This document shows positions 3,802 to 41,041 of a DNA stretch of 64,000 nt, piece by piece. Numbering within the stretch: the first letter of the stretch is position 1; every line of letters begins with the position of its first letter. Source of the DNA: Naegleria gruberi (taxonomy: Eukaryota). A program made the translations under genes and the position numbers. The stretch lies in the NCBI GenBank assembly GCA_000004985.1, contig GG738857.1. One strand, given 5' to 3'. Under the pieces are notes generated by a model that saw only the letters and a list, made by a program, of their open reading frames with translations, did no database searches and had not been told where the DNA came from.

Positions 3802-5543
3802 NNNNNNNNNNNNNNNNNNNNNNNNNNNNNNNNNNNNNNNNNNNNNNNNNNNNNNNNNNNNNNNNNNNNNNNNNNNNNNNNNNNNNNNNNNNNNNNNNNN
3901 NNNNNNNNNNNNNNNNNNNNNNNNNNNNNNNNNNNNNNNNNNNNNNNNNNNNNNNNNNNNNNNNNNNNNNNNNNNNNNNNNNNNNNNNNNNNNNNNNNNN
4001 NNNNNNNNNNNNNNNNNNNNNNNNNNNNNNNNNNNNNNNNNNNNNNNNNNNNNNNNNNNNNNNNNNNNNNNNNNNNNNNNNNNNNNNNNNNNNNNNNNNN
4101 NNNNNNNNNNNNNNNNNNNNNNNNNNNNNNNNNNNNNNNNNNNNNNNNNNNNNNNNNNNNNNNNNNNNNNNNNNNNNNNNNNNNNNNNNNNNNNNNNNNN
4201 NNNNNNNNNNNNNNNNNNNNNNNNNNNNNNNNNNNNNNNNNNNNNNNNNNNNNNNNNNNNNNNNNNNNNNNNNNNNNNNNNNNNNNNNNNNNNNNNNNNN
4301 NNNNNNNNNNNNNNNNNNNNNNNNNNNNNNNNNNNNNNNNNNNNNNNNNNNNNNNNNNNNNNNNNNNNNNNNNNNNNNNNNNNNNNNNNNNNNNNNNNNN
4401 NNNNNNNNNNNNNNNNNNNNNNNNNNNNNNNNNNNNNNNNNNNNNNNNNNNNNNNNNNNNNNNNNNNNNNNNNNNNNNNNNNNNNNNNNNNNNNNNNNNN
4501 NNNNNNNNNNNNNNNNNNNNNNNNNNNNNNNNNNNNNNNNNNNNNNNNNNNNNNNNNNNNNNNNNNNNNNNNNNNNNNNNNNNNNNNNNNNNNNNNNNNN
4601 NNNNNNNNNNNNNNNNNNNNNNNNNNNNNNNNNNNNNNNNNNNNNNNNNNNNNNNNNNNNNNNNNNNNNNNNNNNNNNNNNNNNNNNNNNNNNNNNNNNN
4701 NNNNNNNNNNNNNNNNNNNNNNNNNNNNNNNNNNNNNNNNNNNNNNNNNNNNNNNNNNNNNNNNNNNNNNNNNNNNNNNNNNNNNNNNNNNNNNNNNNNN
4801 NNNNNNNNNNNNNNNNNNNNNNNNNNNNNNNNNNNNNNNNNNNNNNNNNNNNNNNNNNNNNNNNNNNNNNNNNNNNNNNNNNNNNNNNNNNNNNNNNNNN
4901 NNNNNNNNNNNNNNNNNNNNNNNNNNNNNNNNNNNNNNNNNNNNNNNNNNNNNNNNNNNNNNNNNNNNNNNNNNNNNNNNNNNNNNNNNNNNNNNNNNNN
5001 NNNNNNNNNNNNNNNNNNNNNNNNNNNNNNNNNNNNNNNNNNNNNNNNNNNNNNNNNNNNNNNNNNNNNNNNNNNNNNNNNNNNNNNNNNNNNNNNNNNN
5101 NNNNNNNNNNNNNNNNNNNNNNNNNNNNNNNNNNNNNNNNNNNNNNNNNNNNNNNNNNNNNNNNNNNNNNNNNNNNNNNNNNNNNNNNNNNNNNNNNNNN
5201 NNNNNNNNNNNNNNNNNNNNNNNNNNNNNNNNNNNNNNNNNNNNNNNNNNNNNNNNNNNNNNNNNNNNNNNNNNNNNNNNNNNNNNNNNNNNNNNNNNNN
5301 NNNNNNNNNNNNNNNNNNNNNNNNNNNNNNNNNNNNNNNNNNNNNNNNNNNNNNNNNNNNNNNNNNNNNNNNNNNNNNNNNNNNNNNNNNNNNNNNNNNN
5401 NNNNNNNNNNNNNNNNNNNNNNNNNNNNNNNNNNNNNNNNNNNNNNNNNNNNNNNNNNNNNNNNNNNNNNNNNNNNNNNNNNNNNNNNNNNNNNNNNNNN
5501 NNNNNNNNNNNNNNNNNNNNNNNNNNNNNNNNNNNNNNNNNNN
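3802..5543. other. Assembly gap (N run)
   Basis: 1742 consecutive N. Confidence 1.
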
Positions 5544-26208: not shown

Positions 26209-29200
26209 ATGTCTCTCCAAATCAAAGCCCTCACACGCTCACTGCATGTTCTGATGATGTTATGTTTGATAATGATGATCATTGTGATGGAGGGCAATTT
26301 TATTTCCTCCGAATTATTACTGAACAATGATAAATTTCGAATACGTGATGATCACGAAAATGTACTAAATTATATGAGGAGGAAAGCCTTGAGTAGTTGG
26401 GAAAATGATGATCAAATGATGATGGAAAATTCAAATCAAATATTGTTGAATGATTCCGATGCCAGTGGTGTTGTTATTAGTAATAACAGCAGCACTATTC
26501 CAAATATATTTTATTTAAATACTAATATTCCGACCATTAATAATGCATCATCTTTAAATTGTAATAATATTTCGAATCCTTGTACGAAAGGATCACAAAT
26601 TTTAAATTATTTCTATGAAAATTTAGTTTACAAGACGGATAGTATTGATGTTTATGTGATTGGCAATTTGACAGATTGTTTTGATGGGACTGACAGATCG
26701 AATTCCTCCACAAGTAATTTATTAACAATGCGGCTGATAGGTCAAGATCCTAATCAATATTCCTATATGAATTGCAACATGAGATTATTATTTACAAATG
26801 TCTATTTTCATTACTTTAACCTTTACAAATATGATGTGAAAAATTTGAATACAGTAGGATTTGTGAATTGTAACATTAATTCAGTGAATGGAGATGAAAA
26901 AATTGAAACTGGAAAGTTAGTAATACGAAACTCAATTTCTAGGAACTCTAATTTTGAGACTACTAGTGTAGTGGATATTGACAAATTTGTCATGATTGAA
27001 AGTGATTTGAAAGTTTTCTTTCATGATCTGTATTTTTGGAAATCAAGATTTCTGACAGTTAATACTCTTAATAATTCTTTATTTGTGGATAGTTCAATAG
27101 AGTTGAATAGATTGTCAATGGTAGCAGTTGAAAATAGCAGATTCGAGAGATCTCAATTAACTGCTGTTTACCTATCCGCTTTGGAAATCAATAATTGTAC
27201 AGTATACGAAACTGTGAGATGGCTACGATTGAAAGGAACTATTCTCTTATCTCTAGAGAACAGTGTCATTAGTGAGAGTCCATACGACTCATCGAGTAAG
27301 GGAATTATAGAATCAATATTATCGAGCTATATTCACATTAACCAGTGTAAATTTCTTTCCAATAACAATATAGCAGTTTATGTGGACGAAACTGGTTTCT
27401 TCCATACGAGAAAATCGTTATTTAGTAATAATTTGGGGGCTGTATATATTGGAGAAATAGTTAACTTGGGAGATGTATTAACTGGAGTCCATATTATATC
27501 ATCCACATTTTCAAGAAACTTTGGAGTAAATGGTGGTGCCATAACTCTTCCCAACACAACTAGTGAAATATTTCGTTGTGAATTTTATGCAAATATTGCT
27601 CAAGCAGGAGGTGCAATTTTTTCCACTTCTGGTGAATTGAACATACTCAACAGCATCTTTGAAGAAAATCATGCTTTTTATTCTCCTTCATGTCCCACTC
27701 CATTTTGTGGAAGAGGAGGAGCCATCTATGCTCAAAACCCAATTCTTTTAAATATTGACTCTAAAAACACTTTCCGTAGAAACTATGCAAGAGATGGAGG
27801 CGCAATTTATGTTGATATTTATGATGACAATGAATTCTGGAAATCATGGATTTTAGTACTGAACTGTTTAGAAAACTCTGCAACCTTTTATGGAGATTGT
27901 TTTTATTCGAAACAAGATATGAAAGAACATGATTTTCTAAAAATTTTAAAGAACTCTCCAAATGCATTAGGTTCTTCTAAATTAACAATTGTGGACGTCA
28001 AACCAAGCTCCCTTGAAGTATATCCAGGTCAGAAAGCATCCATAGCTTTGACTATTATGGATGGGTTCAATAATACTTTACAAAAGCTGCAAACACAACC
28101 AGTAATAGCGAGCTCAGATCCTGGAGTAGCATTTCAGACATTTTTTGAAAATACCACATTCACCATCTCTCTACAAGTTACTAATCACAATACCACCTCA
28201 GCTGTGGCTTCATTTTATGTTGGAGAAGCAAATGTTAACATTACTGTCAAAATCATACCATGCCCAGATGGCTATTCATTAGTTAATTATTCTGCATCAG
28301 AAACAAGCAAGAGATTGTGCCTCAAAAATCCTGATCCACCACTCCATATCATTTTACCAGCTATTTTTTCAAGTATAATATTGTTCATTGTTGGAATCTT
28401 GTTGGGAATTTTAATAATATATCTAGGTTGGAATATTAATGAAAAGTTGAAACGTCTCAAGAAAAAGGAGAAGGCTGAAAAGAACTTGGCTCAGCGTCTT
28501 GTTGATAAGCAAGTTATCTTTTCAGAAAACAATGAGTTGAATCCATCAACAGATCTAAAGACGTCACTATTGGGAAGCTATTATGCCAACAGTCAAGGAT
28601 CCTCTTCATCTGGAAAGAATAGAAAAATTAAGGAGAAAATTAGGATGCAAGCAGAGCAAAACTATTTAATTCCAATAGAAAATATTGATATTGTTCGAAA
28701 AATTGCTGAAGGAGCAAATGGCATCGTATACCTCGGGAAATGGCTTGGCACTGAAGTTGCTATGAAGAGCTTGAAATTGGAATATGTTACGGAAGAGGAG
28801 AATGAGGAATTTGAAAAGGAGGCAGCATTATTGAAATCCCTTAAACACCCAAATATTGTCACCAGTTTTGGCGTTTGTATGAGTGGAAATATTAAATACA
28901 TGATTGTGGAATACATGCCAAGAGGAAGCTTGGACAGGGCAATTTATCAATCTAGAACTGGAGCTCAAATACTCAAATTGAAACAAAAAGTGAATATCCT
29001 TCTTGGAGTTGCAAACGGTATGAACTATTTACACTCTCTTAAACCATATAGTATCATACATAGAGATTTGAAACCTGGAAACATTTTGCTTGATCATAAT
29101 TTATCAAGTAAGGTAACAGATTTTGGACTCTCCAAAATTATAGGAGGAAATTCTACCAACACAATGACTACAGCACTGGGAACTTTATTTTACATGAGGT

Positions 29201-29658
29201 GAGTTGTTTAATTTAACTTTGGTTATAAGAATAACAATAGTCCTGAGATTCTAGGTGCAGACAGTCCAAGTGAATTCTCAACCAAGCTCGATGTCTATAG
29301 TTTTGCAATCATCATGTACGAGCTGATGTTTGAAGAATCTCCTTATTTAAATCACAAATCGCAAAAGATTTACAGATTCATCACACCCAATACTAACACT
29401 GAAAATCCTTTCAATATTCCAACTAAAGTGGTAAAGGGATTGAGACCTACCATTCCATTTTCATCCCTAGAAGAGCAGTATATTTGGATAGAGGAATTTG
29501 TTCTTCCTAGAGAACCAGAGATGGATGTTCAAATTGTTTCGAACGTATTTTCATTATTTATCGATTTGATGATTGAATGTTGGAGTGGAAAAGCTCAAGA
29601 AAGGCCAGATTTTGGAGAAATTTCCGAAAGATTAGGTGAAATGTTGAGAACATTATAG
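26209..29658 (+). CDS. Receptor-like Ser/Thr protein kinase: signal peptide, PMP/β-helix-repeat ectodomain, TM helix and kinase domain (2 exons)
   Basis: Exon 1 is 26209..29198 and exon 2 is 29241..29658. The 42-bp intron, 29199-29240, runs GTGAGT...AG and splits the kinase 'SPE' (APE) motif. Splicing restores '...GTLFYMSPEILGADSPSEFSTKLDVYSF'. The ectodomain has repeated 'GGAI(Y/F)' motifs (PMP-type right-handed β-helix repeats). The TM helix is 'ILPAIFSSIILFIVGILLGILIIYLGW'. The kinase motifs are GxGxxG-like 'IAEGANGIVY', 'VAMKSLK', 'HRDLKPGNILLD' and 'DFGLS'. Confidence 0.8.
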
Positions 29659-33003: not shown

Positions 33004-34422
33004 ATGTCATCACATCAACTGCCACACATCATCTCACTGTTCTCGATTATAATCCTCATCATATCTTCAATCCACTGCGAACAATTCGTCTTGGGTGGCT
33101 CATTCACCATGAAATCCAGAACATCAGACTCATCTGTCACCAATCACTTTATTAAAAATCTTGCACTGTACAATACAAAAAACAATGAACTGTCAGCATT
33201 TTATAATATCCCACCTGATGGCCCCATTAACGTAATTTATTATGAACCTCGTTGTGATATGATGTTTATCGGAGGAAAATTCACAACCATTGATGGAGTG
33301 AAAAGTGGACCCATTGCTGTGAAATTATTGGCGAGTAGTGGAGGAAACACAACTCAAAATCAGTGGCAATCGTTGGGTGTATTTGATAGAGATATATGTA
33401 TGGGGGAATGGTCGGATGGAGCTGAGATTATGGATATTGAATTGTACTTTTCAAATTTTGTAAAAAGTTGTCAACCAAGTATTGTAATGGTTGGTAAATT
33501 TACAAAGGCAGCTGGTATTAGAAATTTGAATAATATTGTCATGTTGGATACGAAGAGTTTGAAATGGGAAGTGTATGCTGGAGGAAATAATTTGAATGGA
33601 TCTTCGTTTAATGGAATTAGGGCAAATTCATTGAGAGCTGCTCTGTATCATGATGATTCGTATTTGTACGTTGGAGGTGATTTTGATGGATATTTCAAAA
33701 GATATAAGGATCAGAAATGGGAAACTCTTCTTCAGGGACAATTGGATGGTCCAGTAACTACCATTTCAATTCAGAATAATCATATTTATGAGGATATCAT
33801 TGTTGTGGGAGGTCAATTCACAGTTCCTAAGCAGTACATGTTTCTATTCAAGCCATCGAAGAGTGTTAATTATGTGAGACATTTTAAAAAACCAACCAAA
33901 TTGATTGCACCATCAGTTGAATTCCTAACTGCCAATCAGACAAGTAGGAGAGGTGTGAAACAACTTGTGGTGAGTGGAGATCAATTGTTTGCAGGTGGTG
34001 CTTTTTCACATGAATCTGCAACCAATGGAATTTACAATAATTATCTGAGTTTAACTATTGAGGGATATGTAGCAGCCTCTTCTGAAACTTTGAACACTGT
34101 CTTTGAGAATAGTACAGTGTCGTCAATGGGCAAGTGTAAACCTCCATATAGATCTTGTAAGAGAGGATCTGTGGCTATCATCAAGAGGGATTTTATTTAT
34201 TATCCTGAAGAGAAGGGATATTATTATGATCCAGATCTGACATTATGCATTCATAGATCAGTGAATGATATTGACCAATTTAAACTTGCTATTGAAGGTG
34301 AGGAAGATACTGTGAATGATGTCATGTTCTTACCTTATGCTGCATCGAATTGGATTCAATCATCCTTACTGCTAACAGTTTTTTGTTTAATGAATGCATT
34401 GACATTTATTTATACTATATAA
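33004..34422 (+). CDS. Secreted, probably GPI-anchored Kelch-like β-propeller protein (472 aa)
   Basis: N-terminal signal peptide 'MSSHQLPHIISLFSIIILIISSIHC'. Recurrent 'GGxF' blade motifs: 'FIGGKFTTIDG', 'YVGGDFDGYF', 'VVGGQFTV', 'FAGGAFSH'. The C-terminus is a short hydrophobic tail ending at the stop, a GPI-signal-like arrangement. Confidence 0.55.
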   Translation: MSSHQLPHIISLFSIIILIISSIHCEQFVLGGSFTMKSRTSDSSVTNHFIKNLALYNTKNNELSAFYNIPPDGPINVIYYEPRCDMMFIGGKFTTIDGVKSGPIAVKLLASSGGNTTQNQWQSLGVFDRDICMGEWSDGAEIMDIELYFSNFVKSCQPSIVMVGKFTKAAGIRNLNNIVMLDTKSLKWEVYAGGNNLNGSSFNGIRANSLRAALYHDDSYLYVGGDFDGYFKRYKDQKWETLLQGQLDGPVTTISIQNNHIYEDIIVVGGQFTVPKQYMFLFKPSKSVNYVRHFKKPTKLIAPSVEFLTANQTSRRGVKQLVVSGDQLFAGGAFSHESATNGIYNNYLSLTIEGYVAASSETLNTVFENSTVSSMGKCKPPYRSCKRGSVAIIKRDFIYYPEEKGYYYDPDLTLCIHRSVNDIDQFKLAIEGEEDTVNDVMFLPYAASNWIQSSLLLTVFCLMNALTFIYTI

Positions 34423-37400
34423 ACAACATTGGCTTCTTCCAATAATTGTTGTTGAAGAGTGTGAGCCTTATTGAATACTGTATATTCAGAGGTAAAGACA
34501 AATCTAGAGAAGGTATCACCAAGATTGATGAGAATTTGTCGATTCAAGTTTTCAAATGTTTCCTTCACAACCTTTTCTTCAATTTCTATAACTGGAACAG
34601 GAGCATTCTTTGTGGCAACCTTGATATCTTGATCAACAGCTTCAATATCCACAGAGAATAATTCATAAGATTCATTCTTTTTGATAATGCTCTTGTAGAG
34701 GAAGAGGAATGCATTTCTACATTTGGATGGAATATTGACTTCTGTTGGTGCATTCGTCTTGATATAATTGTTATAAATATACTTGGAGAACTTTGGAAGC
34801 CTTTCCAAGTCATTACTATCCAAGAATGATTTGTTTGTTTTGATATCAGTAAAAAGATAAATATTCTCCAATGAGAACTCCTTTTCACAGAAAACTTCAA
34901 AGAGTCCATAACCTTCCTCATTATCCAAAACGACGCTCATATCCTTGTTGATAATTTCATCATTGGATGATTGTCTATTTTCTGGCTCGCTAGCTCTTTC
35001 CGTGTTTCTGACCTTTCCTTTGATCTTGTAGTTTGCCAATACCAACAGAGCATAACCACCAAATGTTAACATGTAGGTGAACACGTACAAAACTTCAAAG
35101 ATGAATGAAACCATATCTGTAACGAGGGCTTTTTGGAACATTTCTTCAGATTGGAATCTGAATGATAAACTACTAAGACCAAGTACTTGATTGAAGAAGA
35201 GGAAAATAAAGCACAAAATGTAGAGCATCATTTCCATTCTGAAATAAAGAGGACCGTCCAATGAAATAAACCATGTATAGAGTTTCTTGAATGGATTTGT
35301 GTAATTTTTCTTAAAGTTAATGGTATTAACATCAAACTCAGATGTTGGCTCCTTACGTTTGCTTGATGCTCTTGCTACTCTTTCCTTTTCTTGTTTATGA
35401 GATCCTACAAAGTCAAATATGGTAACCAGAATAATCATTACACTAAATACAAATACTGTGGTTGTGTAGGAAATAGAAACAATGTAGGTGTAAGCTGCTG
35501 AGCTAATGGCTCCAGTTCTAACTAGGATGACCCATAATGTCCAATAGAGCAAATTGATGCCAGCAAAAACGCAAACAATGGTTACAAATAAAGCAGTAGA
35601 GGTGGTGTAACGAAGCATTTTGAATATTCTTTCGCTCTTCTTTTCGTCTCCTCTTGTCTTGGCAATTAATTGATACAAATATTTCATAAATTGGAATCTG
35701 AATACTTGTAATACATATGAAAGAATAGCCGTCAAATTGAGTGTGTTGACAAGAATAGCAACAATATTAGCAATCACATTAGCAGCTGTATCACCAGCTT
35801 CCCACATTTGAGAATTACCAGAGTAGAGTTGAGATACTAGAACACTTCTTTGGATGATATAAACCAAAACACTTTCAATGATCAAAGCAATCATACCCAA
35901 GTATGGAGTTCCCAAACGAGAGGAAATTGGTTGCTCCTTTCTAAAGATAATTAATAATGTTAGGATGATAGTAGACATTACAAAGTAAAAGATACCGAAT
36001 GCAATTTGAGCACTATACAATCCAGTTACTACCTGCTTAACAATTGGTGTCATCTCTATTGTTTTTTGTTCCAAGAATGTGGAGAACATTGTGGTGTGAG
36101 TACAGGCACAATCAATCATTTGAGTAGCAGGATTATAGCCCACCAATGTACATCCGTCTGTGCTCCAAGCTCCACTACGTTCGTCATAATATCTACATGC
36201 AAAGGTTGATGTATTGGAAGAATAATTGGAAACAGTAGACAAATCCAAGTTCAATTTGAAGGAGAGAATGATTGGAGTTGTCAAGTTAGCCAATGGTAAA
36301 ACGCTTCCCTCTTGTAAGAACTTGAAGTCATTAGCAATAGATGTGGAAGGAGTACTTTCAGTAAAGTTATTGGAGAATGGAAGATTTTGATAGGAAATTA
36401 AAGATGTACCAGCACTCTTTGAGAAACCATCATATTTGGCCAAGATACTGGATATGTCCATTCCAATAGAACTGTCTCCTGATGAGAGAGTTTGATTGCC
36501 TGATGTTGGTCCACTCAATTTGAAGCTAGAAATTGTAATATTGATGAGAGGAGTACTGATTGTTACGGCAGGAAGTTCAGAGGATGATGAGTCCAATACT
36601 GTTGGAACTTGAGAGAGTAAGACAAGTGCGGCCATCTTACTGGTAACCTCTGTCGTTTTATCAGCACCAACACCAGATTGCAGTAAGTTGCCTGAAATTT
36701 CAATTGCTGATTTAACATCATCTTGTGAAATTTTGGATCTAACGTATCCGTACTGCTCAATTTCCTTCTTGTATAAATCTGTAAGAGAATCAGCGAAACT
36801 ACTCATCTTGGTTGTTACTTGGTCAACTACCTTGTCATTAACCGAGTCAGAGGAAGAAGTTAAGGCTTGGAAACTTGACAAAGCAGTAGCAGGATTAGTT
36901 GGATCTATCTTAATGTTTTGGACAATTTGTGAAACCAAATCAGCGTTACCACCACTTCCAGAGGAAGCAACCAAATACGATTGATCGTATGAGGCCACTG
37001 TTACAGCCACTCCTGTTAATTCACCAATTCTAGATGATAATTGAGAAGATGTTCCATTAAATGCAGTTACATTTACAGAAAGAGTCTCAAGTAAATCACT
37101 ATTTCCAAGAGAATCTTTTACATAAACAAGTAATCCAAGAGATCCCACTGTTACTTTCTTGTCTGTACTAATATACGGCAAGTAGGTAGAAATTGTCAGA
37201 TTTGCAGAATACTCAGTCAATCTAATTTGTTTCAAAGAGGTTGGATCAGTAAACCCGATAGCATATTGCAAAGGTTGTAATTGCTCAGCTGCAGCCCACT
37301 GATTAAAGGTAATTGTGAAATAATCAGTGAGTGCATATCCTGATGTTCTATCCAAAGTTACCAAATCACCTTCTGGGGCAGAAGCAGCAGAAATAATTGG

Positions 37401-39891
37401 GATAGTTACAGAACCAGTCATATTCTTGTTAGCAGAATTGAAAATTGCTAAAGAAATAACAACATAAGAACTGCCTGAAATATAGTTGGTTGTACTCAAT
37501 GTAATTGCTGGGGTAAACAATAAGGAATTACCTTGACGTGTATAACCAGTAATAAGACCAGTTGATTTGAAAATATTAGTGAGAGTACTCTTGACCATCA
37601 TTGATACACTCCAAGAGAAAGTCAAGGAAGAAGAACAATTTCCTTCACATCCCAAGAATGATTGAACAATTGATTGATTCAATGCCACTTTAGAAACAAC
37701 AGCCTCAATAGCTTTTCCAGCAGCAAGTTGTTTTCCTACATAAACTGAAGGCAAACCAAAAATGTCCAATGAAGGAACATTTACATCAACAACCGGTACT
37801 ACCAAGACAGTCATATTAAATTTGACAGTGTTGGATACACGACTAGCAAAACCTTTTGGATTAGTATAGAAAACATTAGCCGAGAAAATGTACAAAGCAG
37901 GAGCCTTGAGTTCTGATGGATTAACCATAAGTATTCTATCATTAGTTTGGTTAAATGGAGTTGAAGTGTTTGTATTACCTTGGCAATTTTCACAAATCCA
38001 TTGGTAAACCAGATTGGAGCTGGCGAGAGAGGAAAATTCGTCTGATATTATTTCCAATGAAACAGAAGTAACATTTTGATAGTAAACTCCTGATGATTTT
38101 TTCAAAGAAATAACTAATGGATTGAGGTTGACGCTACAATCGGTAGAAGAGTATCCAGATTGACAGCTACATTCGTTATAAGAAATACAAGTACCCTTAG
38201 ATGAACAAACGTTGCTGGAATTAGATGAAACTGAGTTGCAAGTAGTGAGCTCGCATTTAGTTCCGAAATAGTTTGCATTACATGAACAGATATCATTACC
38301 AGTACATGTTCCCTTTCCATTACAAACAGAGGTGTTGTTAGAATTGATACCAAAACATTTTGTTACTGAACAAGATGGTCCAAACCAATTAGCTGTACAA
38401 TTACAGGTATTGTAGTCCAAACATTTACCATTTCCAGAACAGACTGTGGAGTTCAAATAATTGATTCCATAACAATTGAATTGTGAACATGTGGATCCGT
38501 AATAATTCTTTGAACAATTACAGTTGTTTGGAGAAACACATGAGCCCAATCCGCTACAAACATTGGATGAATTGAATTGAATATCATGGCAAGAGTAACT
38601 TTCACAGTTTGATCCATTGAAACCTGATTTACAGCTACAAATATTTGGCGCAATACAGGAACCATTGCTTGAACAAGCCAAAGAGGAATTAAAGTTGTAT
38701 CCAAAACATGAGAAGCTTTCACAATTAGATCCAGAATATCTTGAGGTACAGTTACATTTGTTTGGTTGAGTGCACGAGCCTCTTCCAGAACAAACATTCT
38801 TATCAGAATAGACGACTGAGTTACAATAATAAGTACCACAGTTTGATCCAGAGTATCCTGCAATGCAAGAACAATTATTTGGTGAAATACAACTTCCTTT
38901 TCCAGAACAAGCTAATGGATCAGAATAATCAAAACCAGAACATTGGTAAGTTTGACAATTGGTGCCATTATATCCAGAGAAACAAGTACAGTTGTTTGGA
39001 GAAGAACATACTCCAAAACCAGAACAAACTGAGGAACTATTCTTTGAAATATTAGAACAATTGTAATTTTCGCATTGTTGTCCATAGTATCCTGAATTAC
39101 ATGAGCAAATATCAGCTCCATTGCATTTACCATTACCAGAACAGACCTTAGAATCATTTGATAACAATCCATAGCATTGGAATTTTTCACAATTATTTCC
39201 ACCATATCCTGCAATGCAAGAACAATTATTTGGTGAAATACAACTTCCTTTTCCAGAACAAACTAATGGATCAGAATAATCAAAACCAGAACATTGATAA
39301 GTTTGACAATTGGTGCCATTGTATCCAGAGAAACAAGTGCAGTTGTTTGGAGAAGAACATACTCCAAAACCAGAACAAACTGAGGAACTATTCTTTGAAA
39401 TATTAGAACAATTGAAATTTTCGCATTGTTGTCCATAGTATCCTGAATTACATGAGCAAATCTCAGCACCATTGCATTTACCATTACCAGAACAAACCTT
39501 AGAATCGTTTGATAACAAACCAAAACATTGGAATTTGTCACAATCATCACCACCATATCCTACAATGCAAGAACAATTATTTGGTGAAACACAGCTTCCT
39601 TTTTCAGAACAAACTCCTGAATTGTTATAGAGTTTTCCATTACAATCATAATTTTCACACATGTTACCATAATAACCTGATTTACATGTGCAAACATTTG
39701 ATGAGGAGCAAACACCATTTCCAGAACATACACCAGTATTATTGTTGAACGTTCCATAACAGTAATAAGTCTGACAACTTTCTCCAGAGTATCCATTTTG
39801 ACAGGAACAATTATTTGGTTTAACACAAGCTCCCTTTCCTGAACATACAGATGAATCATTGTAATAAACGTTGTAACAATTATAATCAGAA
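34410..39891 (-). CDS. Adhesion-type GPCR with C-terminal RGS domain: EGF-like repeat ectodomain, GAIN/GPS, 7TM and RGS. Probably the 3' part of one gene together with 39560..41041.
   Basis: The 1750-aa ORF (34410..39662) stays open in the same frame up to the gap at 39892, and EGF-like repeats continue there ('...CSGKGACVKPNNCSCQNGYSGESCQTYYCYG...'). From N- to C-terminus: more than 20 six-cysteine EGF-like units; a GPS site 'CRYYDERSGAWSTDGCTLVGYNPATQMIDCACTHTTMFSTF' (C-x-C-x-H-T/T-x-F); seven hydrophobic helices; and an RGS box with 'EFSLENIYLF' and 'APTEVNIPSKCRNAFLF'. No signal peptide exists if the protein starts at Met 39662. Confidence 0.8.
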
Positions 39892-40042
39892 NNNNNNNNN
39901 NNNNNNNNNNNNNNNNNNNNNNNNNNNNNNNNNNNNNNNNNNNNNNNNNNNNNNNNNNNNNNNNNNNNNNNNNNNNNNNNNNNNNNNNNNNNNNNNNNNN
40001 NNNNNNNNNNNNNNNNNNNNNNNNNNNNNNNNNNNNNNNNNN
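39892..40042. other. Assembly gap (N run) inside the lectin-EGF-GPCR gene
   Basis: 151 N. Confidence 1.
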
Positions 40043-41041
40043 TGTTATTACAATAATAAGTTCACAGTTAGTTCCGTAGTATCCATTGACACAAGTGCAT
40101 ATATTAGGATTGTAACAAGTTCCATGACCTGAGCAAACATATGAAGTGTTAGTATTTGTAATTCCATTACAAGTCCAATATTCACACAAGGATCCAACAT
40201 AATTGGTGTTGCAAGTACAAGTATTTGGACCACTACAAGTACCTCTACCACTACAAACATTATAACTACCAGCAAGAGTACCGCCACATACGAATGTTTG
40301 ACAATTAGCATTGCCATATCCACTGTTACAATTACAACTATTTGGTGAAGTACAGGTACCATGACCTGAACATACTGCGTCACTGGTTGCATTTACATTA
40401 AAACAAACTGGTGTCTGACAAGTAGAGCCAACATATCCATAATTAGGAGCACTTCCATCAGAATAATCAGTACTCCAACAAACATATCCATCAGAACCAT
40501 ACAAGACTAAATCTCCATTATTTTGAAGAACTAAAGCAAAAGGAGCAGTACCTCCAGTACAAGCTTCTGACAATGTCTTTACAACGTTACCATTGCCATA
40601 AATTGCCAAAGTACCGTTAGTTTCTAATTTCAATTGATATGGAGCTGTTCCCTTCTTATAGGTTCCACTCATCCAACTGGCATAATTGCTGCCAGCACTA
40701 TTATCAAACAATACCAAGTTTCCTGAGGTTTGCATCTGTAAATAGTATTGTCCAAAATAGAGCGAGGAAAAGGTTGCTCCTGCAGTCATGATATTATTCT
40801 GATTTGAAATTAAAGCAGTGGATGTTGTAATATCCAAGCAAGTACATTCATCATCGCCTGTACATAAACCATGTCCAGAACATACACCACTAGTTCCAAT
40901 CTGTGTTGATTCTACTCCTGTACATGTATGTTGAGCATGGCTGGAATGGCTCATACAAATTCCTACAATGATTAGGATAATAAGGTATATACAACTAGTG
41001 CTAGAAAGACGTAACCTAGGGGTTGCTTTCCTATTTGTCAT
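40043..41041 (-). CDS. Signal peptide + bulb-type (B-lectin) mannose-binding lectin domain + EGF-like repeats. Probable 5' part of the adhesion-GPCR/RGS gene.
   Basis: Start Met at 41041 with signal peptide 'MTNRKATPRLRLSSTSCIYLIILIIVGICMSHSSHA'. The B-lectin domain reads 'QNNIMTAGATFSSLYFGQYYLQMQTSGNLVLFDNSAGSNYASWMS...LETNGTLAIYGNGN...LQNNGDLVLYGSDGYVCWST'. EGF-like repeats of the same type as the downstream gene follow and run into the gap. The ORF-track continuation past the gap (39560..39891 in this frame) is out of frame and not real. Confidence 0.7.

Follow-up and report, generated by a model that had tools for sequence, protein, structure and literature searches.

A lectin-, EGF-, REJ- and GAIN-bearing seven-transmembrane RGS protein encoded near a chromosome end of Naegleria gruberi

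The gene at 34410-41041 and its domains

Here we describe a putative receptor gene of Naegleria gruberi, located in a stretch of 64,000 nucleotides of contig GG738857.1 (assembly GCA_000004985.1) that was analysed as a whole and is referred to as the window. The gene lies on the minus strand at 34410-41041, and its coding sequence is interrupted by an assembly gap of 151 N. It corresponds to NAEGRDRAFT_57455 (XP_002679547.1, EFC46803.1, UniProt D2V8G1), a model of 2075 residues whose only public name is "predicted protein"; this model (P0006), which we retrieved by profile search, matches the window protein to either side of the gap and begins with an identical N-terminus. From the N- to the C-terminus, the domain order is a signal peptide, an EGF unit, a bulb-type lectin domain, at least 18 further EGF units, a REJ domain, a GAIN domain with its GPS motif, a seven-transmembrane (7TM) domain and a cytosolic RGS box.

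The open reading frame (ORF) downstream of the gap (34410-39662, minus strand) encodes 1750 residues. Its stop codon occupies 34410-34412, so that its tail overlaps a convergent ORF (33004-34422) by 13 nucleotides. An earlier note on this DNA, written from the sequence by eye, had assigned to this ORF a GPS motif, seven transmembrane (TM) helices and an RGS box, and these assignments hold. The C-terminal cytosolic RGS box (34449-34934, minus strand), which by our visual estimate carries an insert of ~40 residues before its last helices, scores 40.6 bits against a Pfam gathering score of 23.9, and its G-alpha contact motifs are conserved (EFSxEN, EVN and D..R); the invariant columns of the family alignment include E..EN, EVN and D..R in this box. 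The 7TM domain (35028-36032, minus strand) shows seven hydrophobic segments in its hydropathy profile, all between ORF residues 1211 and 1542, and a fold search assigned its core to the generic fold of G protein-coupled receptors (GPCRs), a match that is not class-specific. The features of the 7TM-RGS class, namely seven TM helices and an RGS box C-terminal to them with G-alpha contact motifs, are therefore present.

The GAIN domain (36066-37073, minus strand), found by Pfam GPS, profile search and hhalign, includes the only GPS motif in the window (36081-36200, minus strand; at ~36110), which scores 30.3 bits against a gathering score of 22.5 over ...CACTHTTMFS. The predicted cleavage site is H-T/T (36090-36098, minus strand), with the cut between the two threonines and the strand TMFSTFLEQ behind it. 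By profile comparison, the homology to GAIN extends past the short GPS motif: a five-member family profile matched only adhesion-GPCR GAIN/GPS chains in the PDB (best E 1.5e-6), and a 22-member family profile aligned by hhalign with four adhesion-GPCR GAIN domains at 98.9% probability (E 4e-17, 213 columns), over the end of subdomain A, the whole of subdomain B, the GPS motif and the strand past the cleavage site. The GPS histidine, the second threonine and the F..F pair are invariant in the 22 paralogues, the invariant columns of the family alignment reading C..W..GC....C.C.H.T.F..F. The invariance of the histidine and threonine at the cleavage site, together with the conservation of the hydrophobic strand after the cut, speaks for selection on the GAIN module. 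An AlphaFold2 (AF2) model of the domain contains 6 helices followed by 13 strands and 2 short helices, with the beta part poorly scored.

Sequence comparison detected no similarity between the 7TM core and the 7tm_2 domain of adhesion and secretin receptors, and the core is in that sense not detectably class B. Pfam 7tm_2 did not match the window protein even at E<=10, and the matches of the PDB profile search end at TM1. In hhalign, the family 7TM region aligned with three 7tm_2 domains at only 2% probability, whereas the same procedure gave 98.9% for GAIN, although a template profile as thin as this one (3 sequences) could miss a very remote homology.

Between the EGF array and the GAIN domain lies a REJ domain (37074-38129, minus strand; ORF residues 512-870), which the earlier note had missed. 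The 22-member family profile aligned by hhalign with five REJ domains, which themselves score 103-200 bits on Pfam REJ, at 98.5% probability (E 2.9e-15, 268 columns), and Pfam REJ (PF02010) matches the homologue of N. lovaniensis with 40.4 bits, its gathering score being 25. Pfam REJ gave no match with the window protein alone, and the presence of the domain is thus supported at the level of profiles.

On the other side of the gap, positions 40043-41041 are open from an ATG and encode an N-terminus that resembles a signal peptide, followed by an EGF-like unit, a lectin-like segment and another three EGF units, which agrees with what had been read there before. The start codon and the signal-peptide-like N-terminus (MTNRKATPRLRLSSTSCIYLIILIIVGICMSHSSHA; 40934-41041, minus strand) were identified by direct reading of the sequence; by eye, there is a basic n-region, a hydrophobic core and S-H-A ahead of the predicted cut. 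The first EGF-like unit, which precedes the lectin (40835-40933, minus strand), has the pattern CxG..VCSGHGLCxxxDxCxC, and this pattern is kept in N. lovaniensis (41% identity) and N. fowleri. The lectin domain (40460-40807, minus strand) is of the bulb type (GNA-like, beta-prism II). Its homology to this fold is borne by phmmer matches to PDB sequences, which include SCAfet (9e-12), gastrodianin and curculin (5e-9) and garlic and snowdrop lectins (3e-8 to 4e-5, with snowdrop GNA at 3.6e-5). On Pfam B_lectin the window protein reaches 25.9 bits, under the gathering score of 32.4; the lectin segment gave no matches in a word-indexed homology search, and a single-sequence AF2 model of it was unusable (pLDDT 44). 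All three QxDxNxVxY motifs are degenerate (QTSGNLVLF, ETNGTLAIY and QNNGDLVLY), so that no intact mannose-binding motif was found among them and mannose binding cannot be assumed. The N. lovaniensis copy of the lectin, unlike that of N. gruberi, retains one canonical motif, QADGNLVIY. Of the domain profiles that the earlier note had named for the joined protein, those for EGF, GPS/GAIN and RGS thus matched, B_lectin fell below the Pfam threshold but was matched in the PDB, and 7tm_2 found nothing.

The assembly gap and the gene model

The gap of 151 N (39892-40042), whose length had been given correctly, lies inside the EGF array. Upstream in the direction of transcription, three EGF units reach the gap (40043-40417, minus strand), with the last ~20 nucleotides shifted by one base; Pfam EGF_2 matches three stretches of this upstream piece, the best at residues 300-326. 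Downstream of the gap, the array consists of 15 units with a strict 39-residue period (38130-39891, minus strand; motif positions 28+39k), and it scores 164 bits on Pfam EGF_2 and 138 bits on EGF_TEN. The nominal start of the 1750-residue ORF, Met 39662, falls within an EGF repeat, and the frame remains open as far as the gap, as the earlier note had pointed out; it does so for 76 further codons, up to 39891. The codons between this methionine and the gap read SDYNCYNVYYNDSSVCSG... / SDYNCYNVYYNDSSVCSGKGAC..., the same EGF-type repeat as the remainder.

The gap adjoins a 351-bp tandem repeat of three EGF units (38854-39728). Its best-matching copies (38854-39615) share 95% identity, and this repeat is a likely cause of the break in the assembly. 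The final 18-20 bases of the upstream piece are out of frame: at the contig end the EGF frame reads ...YYGTNCELIIVIT (NCELIIVIT), and TYYCNN in the -1 frame is what the repeat would be expected to show, with a counterpart farther downstream in GTYYCNS. This suggests a single-nucleotide error where the contig ends, and a missing A in "gaactt" would mend the frame. Should the 39-residue period be kept strictly across the gap, the missing piece would comprise 33+39n residues, and the gap would conceal some 33, 72 or more further EGF residues.

The public model XP_002679547.1 joins both sides of the gap by a GT...AG intron from ~40240 to 39839. This intron removes the gap together with ~85 in-frame EGF residues, 66 upstream (residues 268-333 of the upstream piece) and 19 downstream of it. 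Since the best EGF_2 stretch of the upstream piece falls within the intron, the latter is probably an artefact of gene prediction that bridges the gap, and the true protein is probably longer than the public model, with ~2160 residues plus the content of the gap. The different splicing of the public model also explains why an exact look-up of the 1750-residue ORF gave no match.

Homologues, known systems and chromosomal surroundings

That the pieces on either side of the gap form one gene, as the earlier note had proposed, is supported by the public model and by two relatives. The N. fowleri homologue P0151 (FDP41_005437) is one uninterrupted model of 2720 residues with the same lectin (54% identity to the window lectin, E 2e-55), many EGF units and a C-terminal RGS box. 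Its cluster mate P0007, also an N. fowleri homologue and 58% identical in alignment A3, carries the match to the GPS-7TM profile (E 4.7e-204). In N. lovaniensis (locus L002; PYSW02000021.1, 4380-11452), the lectin piece, EGF array, REJ, GPS, 7TM and RGS are collinear on one strand; identity to the window ORF is 43% across 1267 residues, and for the lectin piece it is 41%. This locus is annotated as three genes and consists of at least five ORF pieces in several frames, one break lying within TM1; the frame breaks reflect either assembly indels or a decaying copy.

Homology to the Naegleria family members extends across the B part of GAIN, the 7TM domain and RGS (E 1e-80 to 1e-151). The GPS-7TM profile retrieved 88 cluster representatives at E<1e-30, mostly of 1200-2700 residues, and the members that were looked up come only from N. 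gruberi (at least five paralogues), N. fowleri, N. lovaniensis, Willaertia magna and environmental contigs. All 22 members scanned have RGS, half of them (11/22) pass Pfam GPS, EGF repeats occur in ~15-18 and NHL repeats in 5; a weak B_lectin match is confined, among these 22, to the window receptor. The ectodomains of the paralogues (P0006-P0028, alignment A3) are diverse, with teneurin-like EGF plus NHL repeats in 5/22, a cysteine-rich domain of the ephrin-receptor-like kind in one and of the NCD3G kind in one, and the GAIN-7TM-RGS core is constant across them. More distant profile matches share the GAIN/GPS part only; among them are REJ-GPS proteins from other protists as well as true adhesion GPCRs. 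Five of the former (P0102, P0109, P0113, P0122 and P0141, from Rhodelphis, MMETSP transcriptomes and environmental contigs) have strong REJ and GPS matches followed by multi-pass membrane regions to which Pfam gave no match. These five look polycystin-1-like, which suggests that the REJ-GAIN cassette is widespread outside animals.

The family has been described before. Bosch et al. (2022, J Biol Chem, PMC9283941) reported that N. fowleri has 28 proteins in which seven TM helices are combined with an RGS domain at the C-terminus. A number of these have GPS motifs, and several (Nf 7TM RGS2-4) have N-terminal EGF-like repeats and lectin domains. The belief expressed in the earlier note that a lectin-EGF-GAIN-7TM-RGS architecture was undescribed was therefore mistaken: the N. 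fowleri proteins belong by sequence to the same family and share the layout of lectin, EGF, GPS, 7TM and C-terminal RGS. The figure legend of that paper lists GPS, EGF and RGS but no REJ, which the N. gruberi receptor has. In the same study, the isolated RGS domains of Nf 7TM RGS2-4 speed up GTP hydrolysis on Nf G-alpha 2/3/5/7, and binding to specific Nf G-alpha subunits was shown as well. In N. fowleri, several of the G-alpha subunits need no receptor to become active, and such self-activating subunits are among the targets of these RGS domains. In more general terms, 7TM-RGS architectures occur in many eukaryotic lineages (De Mendoza et al. 2014, PMC3971589), and a 2025 eLife paper on choanoflagellate GPCRs is silent on RGS fusions.

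Several better-known systems resemble parts of this receptor. AtRGS1 of Arabidopsis shares the seven TM helices and the C-terminal RGS box, and it acts as a membrane GTPase-activating protein (GAP) for a self-activating G-alpha, signalling through removal of the GAP (summarized in PMC9283941). It is the established model of 7TM-RGS proteins as receptor-GAPs; unlike the Naegleria receptor, it lacks a large ectodomain and is devoid of GAIN/GPS, EGF, lectin and REJ domains. Metazoan adhesion GPCRs (latrophilin/ADGRL, CELSR) likewise have an ectodomain with lectin and/or EGF domains, then a homologous GAIN domain, in which a C-x-C-x-H-x-T/S site is followed by a hydrophobic strand, and a 7TM domain of the GPCR fold. 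The Naegleria receptor differs from them in that its 7TM domain is not detectably 7tm_2, RGS is fused at its C-terminus, its lectin is of the bulb type rather than SUEL or pentraxin, and the P1 residue is threonine instead of leucine. As in polycystin-1, PKDREJ and the sea-urchin REJ proteins, REJ stands directly before GAIN/GPS and ahead of the first TM helix; however, those proteins continue after GAIN/GPS with a PLAT domain and with 11 TM helices and/or a channel-like region, whereas the Naegleria receptor has 7 TM helices and RGS. In GPR158/GPR179-RGS7-G-beta-5, the RGS component is a separate, non-covalently bound protein, and this complex is not known to be related in sequence to the Naegleria receptor.

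With regard to its surroundings, the gene lies about 35 kb from the telomere, as stated in the earlier note, although this distance is approximate, as two long N gaps (1084-2666 and 3802-5543) lie in between. The window begins with ~330 bp of ~55 AAACCC copies, with one variant, AAAGCC, near base 51, and these copies mark the start of the window as a chromosome end with a telomere of the TTTGGG type. The N runs make the low GC values of the subtelomere partly artefactual. The surface and signalling genes that had been noticed nearby, namely a receptor-like kinase, a leucine-rich repeat protein and a propeller protein, are indeed present. The last of these, the convergent ORF 33004-34422 that overlaps the 3' end of the receptor ORF (34410-34422), is a borderline Rax2-like member of the beta-propeller family (28.3 bits, the threshold being 28.8); its N-terminus contains a signal-like segment and its tail is hydrophobic. 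The receptor-like kinase ORF (26209-29202) combines Chlam_PMP repeats with a single TM helix and a kinase domain, the match to which ends at profile position 164/263; the gene probably continues after an intron. No GPS motif was found in this ORF; a Protostelium protein in the list of distant matches (P0125) combines Chlam_PMP, GPS and kinase.

A proposed receptor-GAP and its alternatives

Taken together, the domain content, the family membership and the conservation of the key GPS and RGS residues, along with a single-gene structure that is backed by comparison with relatives, lead us to consider, at a probability of roughly 80%, that NAEGRDRAFT_57455 is one gene, that it belongs to the heterolobosean "7TM RGS" family, and that its product is most likely a receptor-GAP. 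By analogy, such a protein would act as a receptor-GAP and not as a classical GPCR. The large ectodomain would contact a surface or glycan ligand, and GAIN would cleave itself at H-T/T and retain TMFSTFLE, the strand behind the cut, either as a tether or as a tethered peptide. Ectodomain changes would then be relayed via GAIN and the 7TM bundle and would modify how accessible the C-terminal RGS box is, where it is located or how it is endocytosed; the box itself would speed up GTP hydrolysis on Naegleria G-alpha subunits. Given that some G-alpha subunits, among them several of N. fowleri, are self-activating, the strength of the signal would depend on whether the GAP is withdrawn or engaged, in parallel with AtRGS1 of plants. 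Within this scheme, the autoproteolysis, the ligand and the coupling between ectodomain and GAP are steps that we only infer.

Several points weigh against this interpretation. Both the single gene and its function as a receptor are read from sequence, and we know of no GAIN-bearing 7TM-RGS protein that has been examined as an intact receptor. The degeneration of all three sugar-binding motifs makes glycan binding by the lectin doubtful. Self-cleavage is uncertain, since the P1 residue of the predicted site is threonine and not the usual leucine, and the beta-sandwich of GAIN is modelled at low confidence (pLDDT 28-59). Finally, the N. lovaniensis homologue is split over several frames, and the out-of-frame ~20 nucleotides at the gap make it possible that a frameshift or stop has turned the N. 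gruberi copy into a pseudogene.

The last two points bear on whether there is a single intact gene at all. The lectin-EGF piece might instead encode a separate secreted protein, or be a pseudogene fragment, with the receptor beginning downstream of the gap; the missing sequence, the one-base shift ~20 nucleotides before the gap and the annotation of the N. lovaniensis counterpart as three genes in several frames would fit such an arrangement. Yet the downstream frame runs open into the gap with neither a start codon nor a signal peptide of its own, Met 39662 being inside an EGF unit, and both edges of the gap lie in EGF units of the same type. Moreover, the same lectin piece precedes the same receptor in three species, and in N. 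fowleri the whole architecture is contained in one uninterrupted model, so that we regard two genes or a broken gene as improbable. We give still less credence to the idea that the protein serves mainly in adhesion or as matrix, its 7TM-RGS part being a membrane anchor with a vestigial RGS fold. The ectodomain is indeed very large and repetitive, and the degenerate motifs of the lectin would not be out of place in such a protein, but RGS is retained in 22/22 paralogues with invariant G-alpha contact motifs, and RGS domains of the N. fowleri family are active GAPs (PMC9283941).

A more serious competitor, though an unlikely one in our opinion, is the idea of the earlier note, a true GPCR that limits its own signal. 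The 7TM domain, activated by a tethered agonist, would be an exchange factor for G-alpha, and the fused RGS would shut off the same G protein, so that the receptor would function as a pulse generator. The strong GAIN homology, the resemblance of the post-cleavage strand (T-x-F-x-x-F-L) to the tethered agonists of adhesion GPCRs and the GPCR fold of the 7TM domain are in keeping with this proposal, as is the finding that slow-exchanging G-alphas of N. fowleri, which are bound by 7TM RGS domains, would need an exchange factor (PMC9283941). What speaks against it is the 7TM domain itself, which shows no detectable relation to 7tm_2 (2% in hhalign against 98.9% for GAIN, with Pfam and the PDB profile search empty). 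In addition, to our knowledge, and with the AtRGS1 literature in mind, exchange-factor activity has been shown for no 7TM-RGS protein. We therefore prefer the receptor-GAP, in which the output of the 7TM domain is the RGS box.

In summary, the gene was already annotated, and the published picture of the N. fowleri proteins is unchanged by our findings. What is gained at this locus is a corrected gene model, given that the public model of 2075 residues likely errs in omitting in-frame EGF units, the assignment of a REJ domain, a 7TM domain that is not detectably class B, and the observation that the sugar-binding sites of the lectin are degenerate. The question of how 7TM-RGS proteins, plant AtRGS1 included, sense extracellular cues is one on which the Naegleria family bears: it ties an adhesion-type sensor, composed of lectin, EGF, REJ and GAIN, to a 7TM-RGS output, and it thus offers a natural system in which to ask whether a GAIN/tethered-peptide switch can control a GAP. 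We hold it to be a speculative idea, with the odds clearly against it, that such a switch acts in this receptor on a 7TM domain that has no relation, or only a very remote one, to class B, with a GAP instead of an exchange factor as its output. If true, GAIN-controlled 7TM signalling would be older and more modular than the adhesion-GPCR family, this receptor could be both the activator and the terminator of its own G protein, and REJ-GAIN would be an ancient sensor cassette that these receptors have in common with polycystin-1.

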